64,000 nucleotides of DNA, from NCBI GenBank assembly GCA_964609965.1, contig CAZSTS010000003.1:67260-131259 (forward strand), read 5' to 3'. Source of the stretch: an uncultured Nitrospirales bacterium. Its GTDB lineage: Bacteria; UBA10199; JADGCS01. Shown here one piece after another: positions 1,935-59,080 of the stretch; within the stretch, counting starts at the first letter, position 1; every line of letters begins with the position of its first letter. The notes under the pieces were generated by a model. The model worked only from the letters and a program-made list of their open reading frames with translations. It had not been told where the DNA came from and searched no databases. The translations under genes and the position numbers were made by a program.

Positions 1935-3770
1935 ATGAAGAAATGCTTCTACCAGATTCAAACCCCAGAAGAAGTAAAGGCTCTTCCCGTTCGAGAGCTC
2001 GATCAACTTTCACAATCACTTAAAAAAGATATTATCCAGCATACATCAATGAACGGAGGCCATATCGCACCGTCATTAGGGTGTGTTGATATCATTGTTG
2101 CGTTTCATCGTGTCTTTGAAACCCCAAAAGATAGCATTGTCTTTGATGTGGGGCACCAAGCCTATGCCCATAAAATGCTAACTGGCAGACGTTTGCATTT
2201 CTATACGCTGAGGAAAGAAAACGGCATATCAGGATTCACAACTCCTTCTGAATCAGAACACGATGCTTTTGGATCAGGTCATGCTTCTACCTCTATTTCT
2301 CTTGCTCTAGGCATTTTAGAAGGGAAGAAAAGAAATCATAATAACCATCATGCCATAGCTGTTATTGGCGATGGATCTCTTACAGGTGGGTTAGCCTTTG
2401 AGGCCTTGAATCATGCTGGCGAACTCAAACGAAATCTCATTGTCATACTCAATGATAATGAAATGAGCATTGATGAAAACGTCGGTGGATTGAAGGATTC
2501 TCTGAAAATGCACAGGGCAAAGGATTATTTTAATGCCTTGGGTGTTGATTATTGGGGCATGGAAGACGGACATGACATTCCTAAAATGGTTAAACTTTTT
2601 GAACGGGCTAAGCATCACAAAAATCCGCTCGTTATTCATCTTAAAACAGTAAAAGGGAACGGTTATAAGCCAGCTCTAGAAAACAAAACAAGATTTCATG
2701 GTTGTGGCCCATTTGATCTTGAGACAGGTGCTCCTATTCAATCATCTCAAGCAAAGCCCAAATATCAAGATTTGTTTGCACAAACTCTCATAGAATTAGC
2801 CAGTGTTGATGACAAAGTCATGGCAATAACAGCTGCCATGCCTAATGGCACTTCCTTGAATAGGTTTAAAAAGGTTCATCCAGACAGATTTTATGATGTA
2901 GGGATTGCAGAACCACATGCCGTGGAATTTGCTTGTGGGCTTGCTACGCAGGGCTTTAAACCGTTTGTTTGTATTTACTCAACTTTTTTACAAAGAGCTT
3001 ATGATCAATTGGTTCATGATGTGGCTGTGCATAATCTGCCAGTAACCATTTGTATGGATCGCGGAGGTCTTGTTGGTGATGATGGCGTCACTCACCAAGG
3101 TGTATTTGATTTTGCTTTTTTGAGATCAATCCCAAATTTTGTTGTGATGGCTCCAAAAGATGAGGTGGAGCTACAGCATATGTTAGAAACAGCTCGTCTT
3201 TATGATGGTGGGCCTAGCAGTATTCGTTTTCCACGGGGAGAAGTCACAGGCAAACCTTTGCCTAATAAACTTAAACAAATTCCTATTGGAAAAGCCGAAC
3301 ATGTCTATGGCAATCCTTTTGGTGATATTTTGATTTGTGCCATTGGTCATCCTGTTAACAGTGCTATTGAAGCGGCAAAAATATTAGAAGCAGAATGTAG
3401 TATTGATGTGAGCGTGATCAATTTAAGATTCGCAAAACCTCTCGATAAAAAAATGATATTAGATTTTTCGCGGCGATTTAGAGCTGTTATTACCGTTGAA
3501 GAAGGTGCTATCCAGGGTGGTGTTGGCTCAGCTATTCTTGAACTCTTAAGCGAAAATTCTCTATTAAGGCCTTGCAAGGTTTTAGGAGTGCCAGACGAAT
3601 TTATTGCTCATGCTACGCAGAATAGGCAAAGAGAAATCTGCGGGATAGATAAAGAGTCAATAGTGCAGGCTGGAATCGATATATTAGAAGAGAACGTCAA
3701 TCGCGACAAACAAGAAAAACCAAGTAATGTTACAGAGTTACTGCCTTATCGGGCTTTAAATCAAAAATAA
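1935..3770 (+). CDS. dxs: 1-deoxy-D-xylulose-5-phosphate synthase
   Basis: 611 aa. TPP-binding GDG motif (AVIGDGSLTGGLAFEALNHAG). Transketolase-like pyrimidine-binding and C-terminal domains. N-terminal LPVRELDQLSQSLKKDII is typical of Dxs. Confidence 0.9.
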   Translation: MKKCFYQIQTPEEVKALPVRELDQLSQSLKKDIIQHTSMNGGHIAPSLGCVDIIVAFHRVFETPKDSIVFDVGHQAYAHKMLTGRRLHFYTLRKENGISGFTTPSESEHDAFGSGHASTSISLALGILEGKKRNHNNHHAIAVIGDGSLTGGLAFEALNHAGELKRNLIVILNDNEMSIDENVGGLKDSLKMHRAKDYFNALGVDYWGMEDGHDIPKMVKLFERAKHHKNPLVIHLKTVKGNGYKPALENKTRFHGCGPFDLETGAPIQSSQAKPKYQDLFAQTLIELASVDDKVMAITAAMPNGTSLNRFKKVHPDRFYDVGIAEPHAVEFACGLATQGFKPFVCIYSTFLQRAYDQLVHDVAVHNLPVTICMDRGGLVGDDGVTHQGVFDFAFLRSIPNFVVMAPKDEVELQHMLETARLYDGGPSSIRFPRGEVTGKPLPNKLKQIPIGKAEHVYGNPFGDILICAIGHPVNSAIEAAKILEAECSIDVSVINLRFAKPLDKKMILDFSRRFRAVITVEEGAIQGGVGSAILELLSENSLLRPCKVLGVPDEFIAHATQNRQREICGIDKESIVQAGIDILEENVNRDKQEKPSNVTELLPYRALNQK

Positions 3771-3882: not shown

Positions 3883-5172
3883 ATGTTTTCATCTGAGAGG
3901 AAAATTTCCGTTATTGGTCTTGGGTATGTTGGTTTTCCAATTGCTGTTTTATTTGGAAAACTTGGAAAGGCCATTGGTTTTGACGTCAATGAAAAACGGA
4001 TAAAAGAGCTTAAGTCAGGGAATGATTGGACGCTAGAAGTTAGCAAAGAAGAATTAACCCAGGCAGATATTCATTACACAAGTGACCCCAAAGATCTTGC
4101 ACAAGCAAATTTTCATATCATTGCTGTTCCTACTCCTATTACAGAAGCTAAACAACCTGATCTTGTTCCCCTTTATTTGGCATCTGATACTGTTGGAAGC
4201 GCTCTTAAAAAAGGTGATATTGTTGTTTATGAATCTACAGTGTATCCTGGAGTGACCGAAGATGAATGTATTCCTATACTCGAAAAGGTTTCAGGACTAA
4301 AAGCTGGTGTTGATTTTAAAGTGGGTTATAGCCCTGAGCGTGTTAATCCAGGGGATAAGGAGCGAACCTTAGATAAAATTACTAAAGTTGTTTCAGGTCA
4401 AGATCCAGAAGCCTTAAAAATTATTTCCGAAACATACGCAAAGATCATCAAAGCACCTATTCACCCTGTTTCTTCTATCAAAGTGGCTGAAGCAGCCAAG
4501 GTTATTGAAAACACTCAAAGAGATCTTAATATTGCTTTGATGAATGAATTAGCTGTTATCTTTGACAAGGTTGGCATTGATACTAATGAGGTTATTGATG
4601 CAGCAGGAACAAAATGGAACTTTCTTCAATTTAGGCCAGGACTTGTTGGCGGACACTGTATTGGTGTTGATCCTTACTATCTTACACATAAAGCAGAAAA
4701 ACTAGGGTATCACCCACAAGTTATTTTAGCGGGGAGACGTATCAATGATGGTATGGGCAAGTTTATTGCGAATCAAACAGTGAAAAACATGATTCAGACT
4801 GGGCACGATATTGTGCATAGTAGCGTTATTGTATTAGGTGTTACATTTAAAGAGAATTGCCCTGATTTAAGAAACTCTAAGGTTGTTGATATTGTTAATG
4901 AGCTAAAGAGTTTTGGTGTTGATGTTCAGATCCACGATCCAGTCGCTGATCCTGCTAATGTAAAAAGAACCTGCGGCGTTGAACTCACAAAATTTGAAGA
5001 TCTTAAACCTGCTTCTGCTATTGTGGTTGCTGTAGCCCATGAGGACTATCAAAAACTCATGCCAGAGGATCTACAAAAGATTTCTGTTCCTCAAGCTGTC
5101 ATTGTTGATGTGAAAAATACATTTCAAAAAAAGAATTTAGAGGAATTAGGCTTTCGCATTTGGCGATTGTAA
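3883..5172 (+). CDS. wbpA: UDP-N-acetyl-D-glucosamine (or -mannosamine) 6-dehydrogenase, nucleotide-sugar dehydrogenase family (WbpA/TviB/WecC-like)
   Basis: 429 aa. N-terminal Rossmann motif ISVIGLGYVGFPIAVLF. Catalytic-Cys region GGHCIGVDPYYL. Central and C-terminal UDPG/MGDP dehydrogenase domains. Confidence 0.8.
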   Translation: MFSSERKISVIGLGYVGFPIAVLFGKLGKAIGFDVNEKRIKELKSGNDWTLEVSKEELTQADIHYTSDPKDLAQANFHIIAVPTPITEAKQPDLVPLYLASDTVGSALKKGDIVVYESTVYPGVTEDECIPILEKVSGLKAGVDFKVGYSPERVNPGDKERTLDKITKVVSGQDPEALKIISETYAKIIKAPIHPVSSIKVAEAAKVIENTQRDLNIALMNELAVIFDKVGIDTNEVIDAAGTKWNFLQFRPGLVGGHCIGVDPYYLTHKAEKLGYHPQVILAGRRINDGMGKFIANQTVKNMIQTGHDIVHSSVIVLGVTFKENCPDLRNSKVVDIVNELKSFGVDVQIHDPVADPANVKRTCGVELTKFEDLKPASAIVVAVAHEDYQKLMPEDLQKISVPQAVIVDVKNTFQKKNLEELGFRIWRL

Positions 5173-5206: not shown

Positions 5207-5428
5207 GATCAAGGATGATTCTATCCAAAAATTTACACATACCAAAGACATCACCTCCGCGTGCTCACCCGTCCACCTTTATCATTCAGCTAGTATAAGC
5301 CAATAAAAACAATTAGTTAACATGATGTTTTCATGCTCTCATGGGCTCACTTGAATCTTGACAAACAGAAGCCCTATGATAATAACGAGCAAAAATATTA
5401 CTCAAAATACAAACAAGAGAAAAAGATT

Positions 5429-5953
5429 ATGTTAGAATCCATCATCACATCAAAATCTAGGGTTAAGGTCCTCCTTAAGTTTTTTTTGAATCCAGCCATT
5501 AAAGCATATCTTCGTGAGATATCAGCTGAGTTTGGTGATTCGACTAACTCTGTTCGCGTAGAACTCAACAGATTGGTTGGGGCCAAACTTTTAAAGATTC
5601 AAAAGAACGGGCGTAATATTTATTATTCAGCCAACCAGGAACACCCGCTCTATCCAGAGATTAATAAGATTTCCAGAAAAGTCACCGGTGTTGACAAGGT
5701 TTGTGAATGGATTTCCTCTATAGGAAATATGCAGAAGGCCTATCTATCTGGTGATTATGCTCGTGGCATTGATAGTGGTGTTGTTGATGTCATTCTGATT
5801 GGCAATATTGATAAAAAAGCTGTTTTTGAAAAAGTGGGGCGTATTGAAAAATTCATTAATAGAAAGATTCGGCCGCTTGTTCTCACAGAGAAGGAATTTG
5901 AAGCCATGAGCGAGAAATTGCAGAATCAAAAATTATTAAAATTGTGGGGATAA
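5429..5953 (+). CDS. winged-helix DNA-binding protein with C-terminal minimal nucleotidyltransferase-like motif (putative regulator)
   Basis: N-terminal ArsR/MarR-like wHTH (VRVELNRLVGAKLLKIQKNGRNIYYS). C-terminal GDYARGIDSGVVDVILIG resembles the Pol-beta/MNT NTase signature G[SD]xARGxxxxxSD[IV]D. Start chosen at ATG 5429; the track start 5333 is also possible. Confidence 0.45.
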   Translation: MLESIITSKSRVKVLLKFFLNPAIKAYLREISAEFGDSTNSVRVELNRLVGAKLLKIQKNGRNIYYSANQEHPLYPEINKISRKVTGVDKVCEWISSIGNMQKAYLSGDYARGIDSGVVDVILIGNIDKKAVFEKVGRIEKFINRKIRPLVLTEKEFEAMSEKLQNQKLLKLWG

Positions 5954-5956
5954 ATA

Positions 5957-6436
5957 GTGAATAATTGGTATGTGATAAATATCAAACCTCAAAAAGAGAA
6001 TCATGTGACAAAAAGGCTGACTGATGTCGGATTTGAGATGCTAAATCCTAAGGTCAAAGACTTTGCGAGTAAACTCAAACCCATGTTTCCCAATTATATT
6101 TTTACGCGTTGTAATTTTAGTGCCTCTACCAATTATCACATGATTAAATATACACGTGGTGTAAACAAGATTCTTGGAACCTCTCAGACCCCAGTTTCTA
6201 TTTCAGAGGATATTATCAATATTATTAAAGAGCGCTTAAATTCTGATGATGTATTGGAACAAAACAAATTAGCGGTTGGGAGCCAGGTGAAAGTAAAAAA
6301 AGGATTACTCAAAGACCTTATTGCTGTGATTGAAAAGCCTGTTTCTGCTGAGGGTCGGGTAGCTGTCTTATTACGATTGTATGAAAGAGAGATGAAAGCC
6401 AAACTGAGTGTGAAGGATGTTGAGTTAGTGGCCTAG
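5957..6436 (+). CDS. rfaH: RfaH-like NusG paralog (operon-specific transcription antiterminator; NGN + KOW domains)
   Basis: 159 aa. The conserved-residue pattern aligns with E. coli RfaH (WY..I..KP...H...RL, PMFPNYIF, TRGV, KOW GSQVKVKKGLLKDLIAVIE, GRVAVLLRL). A perfect ops element lies 91 nt downstream. Confidence 0.75.
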   Translation: MNNWYVINIKPQKENHVTKRLTDVGFEMLNPKVKDFASKLKPMFPNYIFTRCNFSASTNYHMIKYTRGVNKILGTSQTPVSISEDIINIIKERLNSDDVLEQNKLAVGSQVKVKKGLLKDLIAVIEKPVSAEGRVAVLLRLYEREMKAKLSVKDVELVA

Positions 6437-6462
6437 GCCTTGGGCCTTGAGCCAATGTTTTA
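6425..6462 (+). terminator. GC-rich palindromic hairpin (GGCCTAGGCCTTGGGCCT) plus TTTT after the rfaH-like gene; possible partial terminator
   Basis: Palindromes seen in sequence, with a short T-run after them. Confidence 0.3.
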
Positions 6463-6526
6463 GAAATTTAGTGAATAGAAAAACACATAACTGCTTAATT
6501 TTAAAGGCGTAAGTAAAAACGTCAAT

Positions 6527-6538
6527 GGCGGTAGCGTG
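6527..6538 (+). promoter_or_regulatory. ops element (GGCGGTAGCGTG), RfaH recruitment site in the leader of the downstream polysaccharide operon
   Basis: Exact 12/12 match to the E. coli ops consensus GGCGGTAGnnTG. It sits on the non-template strand, in a 189-nt untranslated gap between the rfaH-like gene and the wbpB-like gene. Confidence 0.65.
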
Positions 6539-6545
6539 TTTGGAT

Positions 6546-6604
6546 TAGCTAACGGCCGACAGCCCACTGCTAACAGCCAAAATTTGGCTGTCAGTTGTTA
6601 GTAG
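6546..6604 (+). repeat. JUMPstart-like intergenic repeat module (TAGCTAACGGCCGACAGCC...CAGCCAAAATTTGGCTG hairpin)
   Basis: Shares a consensus with the gaps at 7577, 8729 and 9181. Contains a perfect 17-nt palindrome at 6574-6590. Confidence 0.55.
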
Positions 6605-6625
6605 TAAACTTGAAAGGACAAATAC

Positions 6626-7576
6626 ATGAAAAAAGTAGCATTAGTAGGCTGTGGTCGTATTTCAAAACGTCACATTGAAGCAATAAAGGACTGTTCAAAT
6701 CTTAAAATTTCCAGTGTTTGTGATATTGATGTGAACAAAGGCCAGCCCATTTCAATGGAATTAGATGTGCCTTTTGTCAAAGATTATAAAGAAATCACAA
6801 ATGCAGATATTATTTCAATACTCACTCCGTCTGGATTGCATCCCAAGCACGCCATTGAAGTAGCTGAGAACACGGACGCAAAATACATCGTTATAGAAAA
6901 ACCTATTTCACTCACGCTGCGTGAGGCTTATGAGCTTTATCATCGTGTAGATAAGGCTGGTAAAGTCTTGCTCCCTGTTTTTCAAAATAGGTATAACCCT
7001 TTAGTTGATTACATCAAAAAACTTATAGACACAGGAAAGCTCGGTCGTGTGTATCAGTTTATTTCAGATGTGTTGTGGAATCGAAATGATGAGTATTTTA
7101 ACATTGGTTGGCATGGCACAGCTACTTTAGATGGCGGTGTGCTTTACACACAGGCCAGTCATTATGTAGATATGGTTCATTATTTTTTTGGAGAGGTTGA
7201 AGAAGCTCATGGTATTGGCAGTGATTTTAGAGGATTTGATGTTTACGATTCTGTATCTGCCGTATTAAAGTTCCAGAATGGAGTGCATGGCAGTATCAAT
7301 TGTACAGTCAACGCTTTTGGAGAAAACTATTGTACAGAGTTTACGCTCATTGCAGAAAAAGGAACAATTAGATTATCTGGAACTAATCTAAACTCAATAG
7401 CTTATTGGAAGGTGGATGGGATCAAAAAACCAGATATGGAATTTCACCTAGATCATGTGTATGGAAATGGTCACAATACACTTTATAAATACATAGAAGA
7501 AGAAAAATGGGATATGTTCCCAACTAAAGACGATGTGTTATCTGGGATTCGTCTCATGGAAAAAATAAGTTATTAA
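6626..7576 (+). CDS. wbpB: Gfo/Idh/MocA oxidoreductase, UDP-N-acetyl-2-amino-2-deoxyglucuronate 3-dehydrogenase (WbpB-like)
   Basis: 316 aa. N-terminal Rossmann motif VALVGCGRISKRH. EKP motif. Gfo/Idh/MocA C-terminal domain. Same length as WbpB, and its position in the pathway fits. Confidence 0.75.
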   Translation: MKKVALVGCGRISKRHIEAIKDCSNLKISSVCDIDVNKGQPISMELDVPFVKDYKEITNADIISILTPSGLHPKHAIEVAENTDAKYIVIEKPISLTLREAYELYHRVDKAGKVLLPVFQNRYNPLVDYIKKLIDTGKLGRVYQFISDVLWNRNDEYFNIGWHGTATLDGGVLYTQASHYVDMVHYFFGEVEEAHGIGSDFRGFDVYDSVSAVLKFQNGVHGSINCTVNAFGENYCTEFTLIAEKGTIRLSGTNLNSIAYWKVDGIKKPDMEFHLDHVYGNGHNTLYKYIEEEKWDMFPTKDDVLSGIRLMEKISY

Positions 7577-8733: not shown

Positions 8734-8802
8734 CGGTCGACAGTCAACAGCCAACTGCTGATGGCCAGAAAGATCAATCGTTTGCAGTTAGCTGTAAGCT
8801 AA
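8729..8802 (+). repeat. JUMPstart-like intergenic repeat module (GCTAACGGTCGACAGTCAACAGCC...TAGCTGTAAGCT)
   Basis: Shares a consensus with the other gap elements. Flanks the four-helix-bundle gene. Confidence 0.55.
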
Positions 8803-8809
8803 ACAAATT

Positions 8810-9172
8810 ATGTTTCAAGCAAAATATGAAAAACTGGATGTCTGGCAAGAATCTATAGTTTTAACAGAAGATATTTATAAACTTTTACAGAGCTTTCCAA
8901 AATCTGAATTGTTTGGAATGATATCTCAGCTTAAAAGATGTTCTGTTTCTATTCCATCAAATATTGCAGAAGGTTCTTTAAGAGGCTCAGACAAAGAATT
9001 TATCAGATTTTTATACATTGCATTAGGTTCTATTGGAGAACTACATACGCAATTAATATTATCAGAGAAATTAGGATACATAAAAAGTAATACATTCGAC
9101 ATAAGTAGAATACACTCTCTAAGAAAGAAGTTGTATTCGCTTATTTCATCCATCAGAAAAAATTTGAGCTAA
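8810..9172 (+). CDS. four-helix-bundle protein (23S rRNA intervening-sequence protein family, TIGR02436-like)
   Basis: 120 aa. Hallmark N-terminus (YEKLDVWQESIVLTEDIYKLLQSFPKSELFGMISQLKRCSVSIPSNIAEGS). Confidence 0.75.
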   Translation: MFQAKYEKLDVWQESIVLTEDIYKLLQSFPKSELFGMISQLKRCSVSIPSNIAEGSLRGSDKEFIRFLYIALGSIGELHTQLILSEKLGYIKSNTFDISRIHSLRKKLYSLISSIRKNLS

Positions 9173-11309: not shown

Positions 11310-12416
11310 ATGAAAAAAATAGTCACAATTGTTGGAGCAAGACCCCAGTTTATAAAAGCAGCAGCTGTATCGCGTGCTCTTCAAGAACAAAAGGGGCAGC
11401 TTGTTGAGGTGCTTGTCCATACAGGGCAACATTACGATGATAACATGTCTCAGGTATTCTTTGATGAAATGAGAATTCCTAAGCCTGATTATCATTTAGA
11501 AGTGGGTTCAGGACCTCACGGGCAAATGACAGGAAAAATGTTAATCAAAATAGAGGAATTGTTGCTTTCAGAAAAACCAGATTACGTGCTTGTTTATGGC
11601 GACACAAATTCAACTCTAGCAGGGGCTTTGGCAGCTGTTAAACTGCACATTCCTGTAGCCCATGTAGAAGCTGGCTTGCGGAGTTTTAATAGAAAAATGC
11701 CCGAGGAGCATAATCGTGTTCTGACAGATCATGTTTCTGACTTTCTTTTTTGTCCTACTGAAACAGCTGTGAATAATTTAGTAAAGGAAGGCTTTTCAAT
11801 AAACCAGCGACATAATTCACAACCTTTGGTTGTGAATTGTGGTGACGTCATGTACGATGCCTTTTTGTTTTATAGTGAATTATCTGCCCAGAAAAGCAAG
11901 GTTCTTAATGATTTGGAGCTCAAAGATAAAGATTTTGTTCTCTGTACCATCCATCGTGCTGAAAATACAGATGATCCAAAAAGACTAAAGAATATTCTTT
12001 CTTTTCTTGAAGAAATCTCTCAGGATACGACGGTTGTGTTGCCATTACATCCTAGGACAGCTAAGATATTAGAAAAAAACTGTCAGTTGTCAGTTTTCAG
12101 TTGTCAGTTAAAAATTATAGATCCTGTAAGTTATTTCGACATGGTTGAGCTTCTCAAGCAGTGTCGTCTTGTTATGACTGATTCAGGGGGGCTTCAAAAA
12201 GAAGCTTTTTATGCTAAGGCTCCTTGTGTGACTATGCGCGATGAAACCGAATGGGTGGAAACTGTTAAAGGGGGGTACAATCTTGTTGTGGGTGCTGATA
12301 AAAAAGCAATCATCTCTGGTTTTGAAAAAATGCTAGATAGTAAAGCCGATTATAGTCGTGATCTCTATGGGGATGGCGCTGCTTCCCAGAAAATAGTCAA
12401 AGCCTTTGTTTCTTAG
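11310..12416 (+). CDS. wbpI: UDP-N-acetylglucosamine 2-epimerase family, non-hydrolysing (WbpI/WecB-like)
   Basis: 368 aa. IVTIVGARPQFIKAAAV N-terminus, HTGQHYD and HVEAGLRS motifs. Contains an internal heptanucleotide tandem repeat at 12081-12108. Confidence 0.8.
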   Translation: MKKIVTIVGARPQFIKAAAVSRALQEQKGQLVEVLVHTGQHYDDNMSQVFFDEMRIPKPDYHLEVGSGPHGQMTGKMLIKIEELLLSEKPDYVLVYGDTNSTLAGALAAVKLHIPVAHVEAGLRSFNRKMPEEHNRVLTDHVSDFLFCPTETAVNNLVKEGFSINQRHNSQPLVVNCGDVMYDAFLFYSELSAQKSKVLNDLELKDKDFVLCTIHRAENTDDPKRLKNILSFLEEISQDTTVVLPLHPRTAKILEKNCQLSVFSCQLKIIDPVSYFDMVELLKQCRLVMTDSGGLQKEAFYAKAPCVTMRDETEWVETVKGGYNLVVGADKKAIISGFEKMLDSKADYSRDLYGDGAASQKIVKAFVS

Positions 12417-50400: not shown

Positions 50401-51426
50401 ATGAAGGCAATTCGAATACATGAGCACGGTGATGCTAAGGTTCTCAAAATCGATGACATTAAAGAGCCGCAACCAGGTCCTCAAGAGGTAAGGGTTAAAA
50501 TAAAAGCTTCAGCTTTAAACCATATGGATCTTTGGGTCAGAAATGGAATGCCAGGGATTGGGAAGATGCCTCTTACTTTGGGCTGTGATGGTGCTGGTAT
50601 AATAGAAAGCGTTGGTTCTGAAGTTAAAGATCTTCAAAAAGGAGATCGAGTTGTTGTTTACCCTGTTCTCAGCTGTGGTGTTTGCTCGTTTTGTTTATCA
50701 GGATTACAAAATCATTGTAAAGAGATGCAGCTTTTTGGAGAACATGTGAATGGCATGCACGCAGAAATAGTATCTGTGTCACAAAATAACGTTATTAAAT
50801 TAGACAAACGCATTTCATTTGAAGAGGCGGCTGCTTTTCCTTTGGTTTTTCTCACTGCTTGGCACATGCTTGTTTATAATGGACAAGTAAAGCCAAAGAA
50901 TACTGTTCTCATTCTTGGGGCTGGAAGTGGTGTGGGGAGCGCTGCTATTCAAATTGCTAAACATCATGGCGCGACAGTTATTGCTACTGCTGGATCAGAA
51001 AAAAAACTCGAAAAGGCACGAGAGCTTGGCGCTGATTTTCTCATCCATCATTATCAAGACAGTATTTCAGAACAAGTCAAAGAGATCACAAATAGAAAAG
51101 GTGTCGATATTGTTGTAGAACATGTTGGGCTAAAAGTTTGGTCAGAATGTCTTAAATCATTGAGCTGGAGTGGACGGCTAATTACCTGTGGTGCGACCAC
51201 TGGGCCAAAGGTTCAAATGGATTTGCGGCATCTTTTTATTAAACAGCAATCAATAATAGGATCAACAATGGGATCTCTTCCTGAAATGAAAGCTATTCAT
51301 GAATTAGTTGCTAAGGGGAGTTTTAAACCGGTTATTGCTAAGGCTTTCCCTTGTACAGATGTTCAACAGGCCCATGAGTTTCTGGAGAAATCAGAGCAAT
51401 TTGGGAAAGTTATTATTACGTGGTGA
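50401..51426 (+). CDS. zinc-binding alcohol dehydrogenase / quinone oxidoreductase family (MDR)
   Basis: GCDGAGIIESVG, LGAGSGVGSAAIQIA Rossmann motif. Confidence 0.8.
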   Translation: MKAIRIHEHGDAKVLKIDDIKEPQPGPQEVRVKIKASALNHMDLWVRNGMPGIGKMPLTLGCDGAGIIESVGSEVKDLQKGDRVVVYPVLSCGVCSFCLSGLQNHCKEMQLFGEHVNGMHAEIVSVSQNNVIKLDKRISFEEAAAFPLVFLTAWHMLVYNGQVKPKNTVLILGAGSGVGSAAIQIAKHHGATVIATAGSEKKLEKARELGADFLIHHYQDSISEQVKEITNRKGVDIVVEHVGLKVWSECLKSLSWSGRLITCGATTGPKVQMDLRHLFIKQQSIIGSTMGSLPEMKAIHELVAKGSFKPVIAKAFPCTDVQQAHEFLEKSEQFGKVIITW

Positions 51427-51468
51427 ATCGTGGATCGTGGGTCGTGAATTGTCGCTTGTTGCTTGTTG
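51427..51468 (+). repeat. six degenerate tandem heptamers (ATCGTGG ATCGTGG GTCGTGA ATTGTCG CTTGTTG CTTGTTG)
   Basis: Seen in sequence, immediately after the ADH stop. Confidence 0.5.
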
Positions 51469-54977: not shown

Positions 54978-55146
54978 CAAAAACGGTTTTACAGAAATTT
55001 TGGGACTTGCATTCCTTATAGGCCTGCATTATTGATTTCTGATTAATTACACCCTGTTAGGGGAGAGTTTTTTAATAATTTATTAAGTCTTTTAACTGCG
55101 TACAGCGTACGAAGTACAACGTACAGCGAAAAACAAGGAGAAGAAC

Positions 55147-56341: not shown

Positions 56342-56369
56342 AAAGTCAAAGGTCGAAGGTCGAAGGTCA
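56342..56369 (+). repeat. four tandem heptamers AAGTCAA AGGTCGA AGGTCGA AGGTCAA directly after the tuf stop
   Basis: Seen in sequence. Confidence 0.5.
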
Positions 56370-57387: not shown

Positions 57388-57930
57388 ATGAACGTTCAAT
57401 CTGTTAAAAAATGGTACGTTGTCCATACTTATTCAGGGTATGAGCAGAAGGCAAAATTATCCTTAGAAGAGAGAATTAAGTCTGCGAATAAAAAGGAATA
57501 TTTTGAAGAGATTCTCGTACCTTCAGAAAGTGTTGTCGAAATCCGTAAAGGACAAAAAAAGACAACCACGCGCAAATTTTTTCCAAGTTATATTTTGGTA
57601 AAAATGGATCTTAATGACGACACTTGGCACTTGGTTAAAGACACACCAAAAGTAACTGGTTTTGTTGGGCATACCTCTACCCCTCCATCTATACCAGAAG
57701 AAGAGGTTATGCGTATTACTAAGCAGATTGATGATGGGCAGATGAAACCGAAGATGAAATATTCTTTTGAAAAGGGCGATTCTGTTCGAGTTGTTGATGG
57801 TCCCTTTAATACCTTTAATGGTGTCGTAGAAGAAGTTAACCCAGAGAAGGGACGACTTAAGGTATTGGTAAGTATTTTTGGAAGAGCGACACCTGTGGAT
57901 TTAGAATTTGCACAAGTAGAGAAGAATTAG
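57388..57930 (+). CDS. nusG: transcription termination/antitermination factor NusG
   Basis: [19 protein letters not shown] domain. KOW ([24 protein letters not shown]). Confidence 0.95.
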
Positions 57931-57946: not shown

Positions 57947-58369
57947 ATGGCACGAAAACCTATTGCACAAATTAAATTACTTTGTCCTGCTGGTCAAGCA
58001 AACCCAGCCCCACCTGTTGGCCCCGCATTAGGGCAACATGGGGTTAATATCATGGAGTTTTGCAAAAAGTTTAATTCAGCAACACAAAAAGAGGGTGGAA
58101 TGATCATTCCCTGTGTGATCACTGTTTATACAGATAGGTCATTCAGCTTTATTTTAAAAACTCCGCCAGCGTCTATTTTGCTATTAAAAGCAGCTAAACT
58201 TAAAAAAGGTGCAGGAGATACTGGTAAAGAGAGGGTTGGCAAAGTTACAATGAAGCAGGTTGAAGAAATTGCAAAAATTAAAATGCCTGATTTAAATTGT
58301 TATGCTTTAGAAGCCGCTGTTAACACTGTAAAGGGAACAGCACGAAGCATGGGCATTGATGTTGTTTAG
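57947..58369 (+). CDS. rplK: 50S ribosomal protein L11
   Basis: [34 protein letters not shown]. Confidence 0.95.
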
Positions 58370-58378
58370 AGAGGTTTT

Positions 58379-59080
58379 ATGAAAATACCAAAAAAACAAA
58401 AAGAAGTTCGCGGAAAAATACTAGCAGATAAAAAATACAATATTGCTGAGGCAATGCAGTTACTGCAAGAGGGCGCTACAACAAAATTTGATGAAACAAC
58501 GGATGTTTGTGTTCGTTTGGGCATTGATGCTAAAAAATCCGATCAACAAATTAGAAGCGCAGTTGTTTTGCCACATGGGTTAGGAAAAAAGGTTCGCGTT
58601 TTAGCCTTTGTAAAAGGTGAAAAAGAAGCTGAAGCCAAAGAAGCTGGTGCGGATTACATTGGTGGAGCAGATCTTGTAGAAAAAATTCAAGGCGGTTGGT
58701 TAGAGTTTGATGCTGTTGTCGCTACACCTGATATGATGGGTGTTGTGAGTAAAGTAGGAAAGATCTTAGGCCCTAGAGGCTTGATGCCAAATCCAAAGCT
58801 TGGAACTGTTAATTTTGATGTAAAAAAATCTATTAGTGATTGCAAGTCTGGTAAAGTAGAATTTCGATCTGAAAAAGCTGGAAATGTTCATGCTCCATTT
58901 GGAAAAATCAGTTTTGGACCAGAAAAGCTCACAGACAACCTTAAAGTTTTGTTAAACACCATCAAAAAATTAAAGCCACAGACTTCAAAAGGTGTTTATA
59001 TTAATGCTGTTACTCTCTCAACAACGATGGGCCCAGGGGTTCGTCTTGATGTAGGAGAGGTAGCAAAGATTTTAAGTTAA
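58379..59080 (+). CDS. rplA: 50S ribosomal protein L1
   Basis: 233 aa L1 signature (VVLPHGLGKKVRVLAF, GPRGLMPNPKLGTV). Confidence 0.95.
   Translation: MKIPKKQKEVRGKILADKKYNIAEAMQLLQEGATTKFDETTDVCVRLGIDAKKSDQQIRSAVVLPHGLGKKVRVLAFVKGEKEAEAKEAGADYIGGADLVEKIQGGWLEFDAVVATPDMMGVVSKVGKILGPRGLMPNPKLGTVNFDVKKSISDCKSGKVEFRSEKAGNVHAPFGKISFGPEKLTDNLKVLLNTIKKLKPQTSKGVYINAVTLSTTMGPGVRLDVGEVAKILS

Follow-up and report, generated by a model that had tools for sequence, protein, structure and literature searches.

A Locus-Linked RfaH-Like NusG Paralog and ops Element at the Head of a Long Glycan Gene Array

A gene encoding an RfaH-like paralog of the transcription factor NusG and, downstream of it on the same strand, a perfect copy of the ops element can be found in a 64,000-nucleotide stretch of DNA from an uncultured bacterium (contig CAZSTS010000003.1), the whole of which is referred to here as the window. 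Together they probably constitute a locus-linked processivity module of the RfaH/ops type, by which operon polarity would be suppressed in the glycan genes that follow. An ops element or JUMPstart sequence at the head of polysaccharide operons is classical for gamma-proteobacteria; in E. coli, the element is that of the waa, rfb, kps, hly, and tra operons. The case is carried by the order and strand of gene and site, their co-conservation in related loci, a conserved hairpin directly upstream of the site, and the RfaH-type signature residues of the protein. The features concerned are the following:

5957-6436, + strand: NusG paralog gene (RfaH-like specialized NusG paralog, NusG-SP), GTG start, 159 amino acids (aa), NGN and KOW domains
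6506-6523, + strand: pre-ops hairpin GGCGT-(8 nt)-ACGTC, seen in the minimum-free-energy fold; it may act in pausing or in recruitment
6527-6538, + strand (coding, non-template): ops element GGCGGTAGCGTG, 12/12 match to E. coli ops
6626-49745, + strand: putative target, 40 uninterrupted same-strand genes of glycan synthesis and export, from the list of open reading frames (ORFs) and Pfam

The ops Element

The element lies in a 189-nt spacer (6437-6625): its first base is 91 nt beyond the end of the paralog stop codon, and 87 nt separate it from the ATG at 6626. Its loop base T6 is at 6532 and the predicted pause at T11 (6537), followed by G12 (6538). An earlier note on this DNA had described both the 159-aa paralog and a 12/12 ops match on the non-template strand of its downstream leader; the former is borne out by ORF and family searches, and the coordinates and sequence of the latter are as claimed. 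In E. coli, G4, G5, A7, and G8 of ops are essential for RfaH, T6 is flipped out, and C3:G8 belongs to the stem of a non-template hairpin; ops is also the exemplar of the consensus pause (PMC5995543).

No other site in the 64 kb, on either strand, lies within two mismatches of the 12-mer, and 6527-6538 is also the sole match in the window to GGCGGNAGC, where the sixth base is left free. From base composition at 38% G+C (36-42% throughout the window), about 0.002 exact 12-mers would be expected per window and about 3e-6 in the leader on that strand. The 12-mer could have turned out to be common at random sites, as the earlier note had allowed; it is present in a single copy in the window, and the core GGCGGTAG occurs only 7 times in the 770 kb lying outside the paralog-linked regions of related loci.

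Conservation Across Related Loci

Eighty loci with relatives of the paralog (L001-L080) were compared, all from species-representative genomes that are metagenome-assembled genomes (MAGs), mostly labelled Deltaproteobacteria, Thermodesulfobacteriota, Syntrophales, or Aminicenantes. GGCGGTAG can be found 29 times in the 82 kb located 0-1200 nt 3' of the paralog on the same strand, against the 7 copies in the other 770 kb, both strands included, a local enrichment of about 39-fold. With the sixth base free, 45 of the 80 loci carry the element (46 matches in the 82 kb versus 13 in the 770 kb). Wherever the ORFs were examined (21 of 21 loci), it occupies the intergenic leader of the gene that follows on that strand; in two loci, L019 and L020, an element is found 52 nt upstream of the paralog itself. 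On these sequences the pair is conserved and directional to a degree that excludes chance, and a functional gene-site pair is very likely because the linkage is conserved in many relatives.

Bases G1-G5, A7, G8, and C9 of the element are invariant among related loci, and the loop base at position 6 tracks the paralog tree. T6 is found in the clade of the window and in a large clade of mostly Thermodesulfobacteriota or delta-proteobacterial MAGs; GGCGG-A-AGC is found in 9 loci forming one clade, GGCGG-G-AGC in 5 loci, and GGCGG-C-AGC in 1 locus, GGCGG-T-AGC being seen as well. Examples of loop-variant elements are L025:3620, L030:3797, L043:3706, L041:3587, and L027:3609, together with L040. 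In two MAGs an A6 pair stands beside a T6 pair (L025/L030 and L040/L043), which suggests, by analogy with Bacteroides UpxY/opsX, that MAGs with two paralogs hold orthogonal factor/site pairs. A simple residue code for the position-6 base was considered and rejected, no single column of the family alignment separating the T6 from the G6 clades.

A scan of metagenome contigs with ATGGCGGTAGCGTGT gave at least 120 matches (L087-L206). In about 10 of the 120 listed, a paralog of the family ends 75-880 nt upstream on the same strand (e.g., L183, with the match at 3251, L113, L144, L159, L187, and L188), and in L101 ops lies just upstream of the paralog. By these matches the linked paralog-ops arrangement is widespread in environmental metagenomes. 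The extended flank of the window is absent from the matches listed (at least 120), which are uninformative on the regulon of the host.

The Pre-ops Hairpin and the Leader

The arms of the pre-ops hairpin are GGCGT (6506-6510) and ACGTC (6519-6523), leaving a 3-nt gap to ops and placing the last paired base at about -15 from the predicted pause. L001-L004 all retain the stem, one pair being G:C in place of C:G in L003 and L004. When each sequence was folded separately with a shuffle control, a hairpin of at least 5 bp ending 2-5 nt 5' of the element was found in 33 of 46 loci (72%) versus 12% of shuffles (binomial p ~9e-21, the loci being related, though their stem sequences differ). RNAalifold did not recover the pre-ops hairpin from ten leaders because the stems sit in different registers. 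The Rfam JUMPstart model (RF01707) matches 6511-6538 over model positions 1-38 with 18.4 bits against a gathering threshold of 35; the ops part is perfect, the 3' end of the model being exactly GGCGGUAGCGUG, and the score is sub-threshold because the hairpin part differs. The layout of JUMPstart is present in full, i.e., hairpin at 6506-6523, 3-nt gap, GGCGGUAGCGUG, and glycan array from 6626.

The hairpin is included in a longer conserved segment:

6462-6526, + strand: conserved leader block TAGTGAA..GAAAAACACATAACTGCTT..AGGCGT..AAAACGTCAAT, aligning, and mostly kept, in the window, L001, and L002, in part also in L003 and L004

About 65 nt 5' of ops are kept between the window, L001, and L002, whose proteins are about 64% identical (53-64% for L001-L004). 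This block is possibly a promoter, an operator, or the upstream-duplex part of the recruitment site. A sigma-70 consensus scan of the + strand of the 189-nt leader found nothing, and hits elsewhere were at chance level. A candidate promoter (TTGAAT-18-TATGAT / TTGACA, 5351-5386) was seen 5' of the winged helix-turn-helix (wHTH) gene that precedes the paralog; it is unproven. Transcription could start upstream of the wHTH gene or inside the conserved block. Sigma-54 -24/-12 spacing in the block was judged by eye and rejected. In relatives, a TGGCACAA motif was noted about 50-55 nt 5' of the A6 element (L031, L051, L057, L067, L068, and L073) and GTGGC 5' of the hairpin-ops unit in the large, mostly Thermodesulfobacteriota T6 clade (L024, L026, L028, L037, L043, L045, and L054); both resemble the -24 box of sigma-54 promoters, and no proper -12 GC was seen at canonical spacing.

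Repeats with a heptanucleotide period, GCnnAnn, flank ops (e.g., AGCTAAC GGCCGAC AGCCCAC TGCTAAC AGCCAAA). They are often inverted arrays able to form hairpins, and GCNNANNGCNNANNGCNNA gives 7 matches versus 0.3 expected. In the window they are found in spacers at 6434-6455, 6547-6581, 7579-7597/7623-7641, 8781-8799, 12081-12109, 51423-51468, 55098-55128, and 56345-56368, and in relatives at L001:3474-3538 and 3627-3664 and at L002:1600-1651 and 1773-1810. A role as an ops-specific protein-binding array was rejected, the same repeats being found in other intergenic spacers of the window; they look like genome-wide intergenic repeats rather than ops-specific ones.

The Paralog: Family, Diagnostic Residues, and Fold

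The start of the paralog is taken at GTG 5957 and not at 5972 because of the Shine-Dalgarno-like GGGGA located 6 nt 5' of the former and the N-terminal MxxWYV, which is near-invariant across all homologs of the paralog. Some public gene calls use the second GTG (5972), which gives 154 aa. The Pfam NusG NGN domain is matched with 59.9 bits (cutoff 22.2). Among named families, the top score is that of NCBIfam RfaH TIGR01955 (76.7 bits, cutoff 144.5), ahead of NF006534, also RfaH (61.5, cutoff 124), LoaP NF033641 (60, cutoff 125), NusG TIGR00922 (51.6, cutoff 135.7), and UpxY NF033644 (45.9, cutoff 100); every NCBIfam score is far under its curated cutoff. Compared by sequence with solved structures, the paralog matches both RfaH and NusG at E ~1e-4. 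A profile built from 32 sequences of the family and compared by hhalign gives E 4.6e-17 with E. coli RfaH and 5.6e-14 with E. coli NusG, the reference sequences having been checked against PDB 2OUG and 2JVV, respectively.

The alignment with RfaH, which the earlier note had called position-by-position, does cover both domains (positions 1-158 of 159 of the NCBIfam RfaH model, 153 columns with hhalign); that description is too strong for proteins of 21-22% identity, with a beta-hairpin 7 residues shorter in the paralog than in E. coli RfaH and a sub-cutoff score. Placement with housekeeping NusG, a possibility also raised there, is ruled out: RfaH is the best named family, and a separate gene of the window fills the other role:

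57388-57930, + strand: housekeeping NusG (TIGR00922, 235 bits, cutoff 135.7), outside the system and serving as contrast gene

This protein retains the Rho-contact loop (SIFGRATPV) and has L at the F56 position. It is directly followed by 57947-58369 and 58379-59080, the nearest named homologs of the latter being ribosomal protein L1 from MAGs labelled Deltaproteobacteria. The paralog does not have the place upstream of rplK-rplA that is typical of housekeeping NusG; it sits in a glycan cluster.

The signature of RfaH comprises K10, F56, and R73 together with loss of the NusG Rho-contact loop I164-F165-G166 (Wang et al., 2020, PMC7593976), and the T6 pocket of E. coli RfaH includes H20, R23, and Q24 (Zuber et al., 2018, PMC5995543). 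The corresponding residues of the paralog are:

RfaH K10 (F in NusG): paralog K10, kept
RfaH F56 (L in NusG): paralog F49, kept
RfaH T72-R73-G74-V75: paralog T66-R67-G68-V69, kept, invariant among 32 database homologs
NusG Rho-contact loop IFG: paralog LYE, lost as in RfaH
RfaH H20, R23, Q24 (alpha-1 half of the T6 pocket): paralog R20, D23, V24, not kept
RfaH E48 (autoinhibition): paralog K41, not kept
RfaH R138 (E48-R138 salt bridge): paralog R134, kept

K10, F49, and T66-R67-G68-V69 are invariant within the paralog family; the T6-pocket positions vary across it. If the paralog reads T6, its reading mode would be expected to differ from that of E. coli RfaH. By these comparisons, the protein is an RfaH-like specialized NusG paralog and not an RfaH equivalog, because its score is sub-cutoff and three of the four T6-pocket residues and E48 are missing.

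Structure prediction, from which the earlier note had sought the all-alpha to beta switch of the KOW domain, does not show it. Run on the 32-sequence alignment, AlphaFold2 predicts an NGN domain and a beta-barrel KOW domain (mean pLDDT 82; 70-83 in the C-terminal domain, CTD), whereas with the 19 closest sequences the CTD becomes a helical hairpin (117-126 and 131-149) of low confidence (pLDDT 37-53), so that the two runs disagree on the fold. AlphaFold2 is moreover known to give the beta form for most experimentally proven fold switchers of the NusG family (PMC9247905). The best full-length match of the AlphaFold2 model is activated RfaH on the ops-paused complex (8PHK_P, TM 0.68), and 6C6S_D is also matched (TM 0.66).

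Genes of the Locus

Two genes precede the ops leader in addition to the paralog:

3883-5172, + strand: UDP-glucose/GDP-mannose dehydrogenase-family gene (WbpA-like), with the N-terminal, central, and C-terminal Pfam UDPG_MGDP_dh domains
5429-5953 (ORF opening at 5333), + strand: wHTH and nucleotidyltransferase-like gene, stop 3 nt before the paralog start

Because of the WbpA-like gene upstream, the regulator pair is embedded in the glycan locus and not at its edge; an ORF of similar size (441 aa) holds the same position in L001. The 5429-5953 product has weak matches to the HTH of ArsR, PaaX, and penicillinase repressor, and its C-terminal half (GDYARGIDSGVVDVILIG) matches 2RFF, a putative nucleotidyltransferase (E 5e-4). 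In L001-L004, its orthologs (53-83% identity) lie directly against the paralog and have MLESIITSK as their first residues, which is why ATG 5429 is the likely start. More distant loci have in the partner position a wHTH gene (about 170 aa) that is unrelated to it.

The first gene after the paralog encodes a WbpB-like oxidoreductase of the GFO/IDH/MocA family. The array further includes genes for DegT aminotransferases, acetyltransferases, a UDP-GlcNAc 2-epimerase, an AsnB-like protein, a formyltransferase, two Wzx-like flippases, GT1, GT2, and GT4 glycosyltransferases, a C5-epimerase, an initiating sugar transferase, Wzz-like and Polysacc_synt_2 proteins, and an SLBB/Wza-like exporter. Between an aminotransferase and an acetyltransferase gene of the array, a "23S rRNA-intervening sequence protein" (PF05635, 122.8 bits) is encoded at 8810-9172. 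The operon end at about 19 kb that the earlier note had proposed, with about 43 kb as its other possibility, found no support, as no boundary feature was seen there and the array is continuous to 49745; terminator scans from 6.4 to 57.5 kb gave matches not above those of shuffles and hence no operon boundary. Recent horizontal transfer of the locus was considered and set aside, G+C being flat across the window.

Proposed Mechanism and Alternatives

In the mechanism proposed, RNA polymerase would enter the glycan leader from a promoter 5' of the wHTH-paralog pair or from one within the leader block, transcribe the hairpin at 6506-6523, and pause at the consensus-pause element GGCGGTAGCGTG, helped by the RNA hairpin. 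In the paused complex the non-template strand would expose the small GCGGTAGC hairpin, to which, together with the beta' clamp helices, the NGN domain of the adjacently encoded paralog would bind. The paralog would then remain on the polymerase, exclude housekeeping NusG and hence Rho, and suppress pausing and termination, so that a transcript of about 43 kb would be completed (its predicted reach would be 19 kb with the shorter operon); a link between polymerase and ribosome may be a further role of the KOW domain. A long, single-strand array of 40 glycan genes is the classic type of substrate for such factors. Encoded right beside the site, the factor may work chiefly in cis, an arrangement proposed for early or monomorphic forms of RfaH (PMC7593976, PMC13015549).

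Several points weigh against this mechanism. Both RfaH family models score the paralog below their cutoffs, and of the four residues that form the T6 pocket in E. coli, three differ in the paralog (R for H20, D for R23, and V for Q24). The location of ops within a transcribed leader is assumed, because the promoter was not located. Just 3' of the paralog stop, a GC-rich hairpin is followed by UGUUUU, which could separate two transcription units or may attenuate read-through. Many RfaH targets lack a good Shine-Dalgarno sequence, whereas the first array gene has one (GAAAGGA). Targets in trans beyond the 64 kb analyzed are possible, and the module is proposed from sequence.

The alternative that survives best, though it is unlikely, is that the paralog acts in trans on a regulon, in the manner of E. 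coli RfaH, and serves several operons around the genome with ops sites in their leaders (GGCGGTAGC), the ops beside it being just one of its targets. E. coli RfaH does act in trans, the canonical sequence of the element would suit a shared signal, and most of the 120 ATGGCGGTAGCGTGT matches listed are without a nearby paralog, though many of these contigs are short or the matches lie in coding sequence. However, the linkage is kept across very divergent loci, no second ops can be found in the 64-kb window, and the two-paralog MAGs (L025/L030 and L040/L043) pair each paralog with its own ops variant, which argues for locus-specific action.

It is considerably less probable that ops serves only as a factor-independent pause or leader signal, the paralog being recruited through a nascent RNA hairpin, as has been proposed for LoaP, or by its synthesis nearby. 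Such a role would be in keeping with ops as consensus-pause exemplar (PMC5995543), with the conserved hairpin that precedes it, with the T6-pocket residues that are not conserved, and with a paralog whose better-supported AlphaFold2 model has a beta-barrel KOW domain and which, lacking E48, resembles the monomorphic homologs (PMC13015549). Yet a pause needs just the flanking G and TG, while the central GCGG-AGC, i.e., the non-template hairpin, is invariant; the sole variable base, that of the loop, tracks the paralog clades, as direct read-out by a protein predicts; and K10 and TRGV, which make up the remaining half of the RfaH surface in contact with DNA, are invariant. Finally, that the 12-mer stands by chance beside an unrelated NusG-family gene is refuted: although matches with up to two mismatches are not rare in shuffles, only about 0.002 exact ones are expected per window, strand and position are correct, and the element recurs in 29-45 of the 80 related loci with its roughly 39-fold local enrichment.

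Significance

With the locus-linked RfaH/ops-type module as the preferred explanation, a practical consequence is that it shows where regulation of a very long surface-glycan locus would begin in a lineage without cultured members. A broader joint reading, tentative and rather doubtful, is that the GCGG-N-AGC hairpin site, with an RNA hairpin ahead of it, is an ancient modular loading site for a large family of cis-encoded NusG paralogs beyond the classical range of RfaH, among them those of former "Deltaproteobacteria" such as Thermodesulfobacteriota, Syntrophales, and the marine lineage of the window, with the position-6 base as specificity code and with a window member that would be non-autoinhibited, act in cis, and read T6 by a different pocket. 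If so, sequence-specific recruitment would predate autoinhibition and fold switching in the evolution of RfaH, and if the loop base (T, A, G, or C) is a code, several paralog/operon pairs could work orthogonally in one cell. To our knowledge, E. coli RfaH and, more recently, Bacteroides UpxY are the sole NusG paralogs whose recruitment is understood in detail. These loci offer a natural series of factor/site pairs bearing on how non-template DNA hairpins are read, on whether ops recognition preceded autoinhibition, and on the orthogonality of regulators.

Comparison With Known Systems

The earlier note had set the cis-encoded regulator and site apart from E. coli, where rfaH is unlinked. The linkage is confirmed and conserved; it is not unprecedented, as can be seen from UpxY, the plasmid factor PrfaH, the RfaH clusters CL2-8, the monomorphic homologs, and, reportedly, Myxococcus TaA and LoaP, which are said to be further cis-encoded NusG paralogs. 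No paper describing ops beside RfaH-like genes in these lineages was found in the literature searched, which is not proof of absence.

With E. coli RfaH/ops, the system shares the identical 12-nt ops on the non-template strand in the leader of a long polysaccharide operon, an NGN and KOW paralog coexisting with NusG, the residues K10, F56, and T72-R73-G74-V75, the loss of the Rho loop, and, as in the JUMPstart of Rfam, a hairpin upstream of ops. Unlike E. coli RfaH, the paralog is only about 21% identical and scores sub-cutoff, H20, R23, Q24, and E48 are not conserved, the beta-hairpin is 7 residues shorter, and the host is not a gamma-proteobacterium but belongs to an uncultured marine lineage of the former "Deltaproteobacteria"; by their names only, the source samples appear to be marine metagenomes. 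For the paralog, a helical CTD, as in the autoinhibited state of E. coli RfaH, is seen only in the low-confidence one of the two disagreeing models.

UpxY of Bacteroides activates the very capsule operon that contains its gene, and its opsX sites have YGCG-N-AGCR non-template hairpins with variable loops and upstream pause hairpins (Saba et al., 2024, PMC11685472). The present system is similar in its cis NusG paralog, GCG-N-AGC hairpin site, and upstream candidate RNA pause hairpin, and related MAGs likewise hold several paralogs per genome with loop-variant sites. In contrast to UpxY, whose gene comes first in its operon with upxZ next and whose model the paralog matches with 45.9 bits only (cutoff 100), the paralog is preceded by a wHTH gene and not followed by an UpxZ-like gene. 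In the window and most relatives ops is found downstream of the paralog gene, L019, L020, and L101 having it upstream as Bacteroides does, and the element is the canonical 12-mer, whereas opsX is multipartite and about 40 bp long.

PrfaH of IncX3 plasmids has an ops-like site within the same transcription unit (PMC11880322), the RfaH clusters CL2-CL8 adjoin envelope-polysaccharide genes, CL4 having an HTH regulator (Wang et al., 2020, PMC7593976), and cis-encoded "monomorphic" RfaH homologs are ops-independent in E. coli assays and lack key ops-binding residues (2026 preprint, PMC13015549). As in these systems, the factor is encoded beside, or co-transcribed with, a long target operon, and its DNA-contact residues differ from those of RfaH; unlike in these systems, which are found in plasmids of Enterobacteriaceae and in other Proteobacteria, a perfect and conserved ops accompanies the gene. 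In sum, the device is a real but essentially familiar one of the RfaH/ops anti-termination type, and what appears less expected in it is the combination of the exact E. coli 12-mer with a paralog that is about 21% identical to RfaH and whose T6 pocket is in large part another one.

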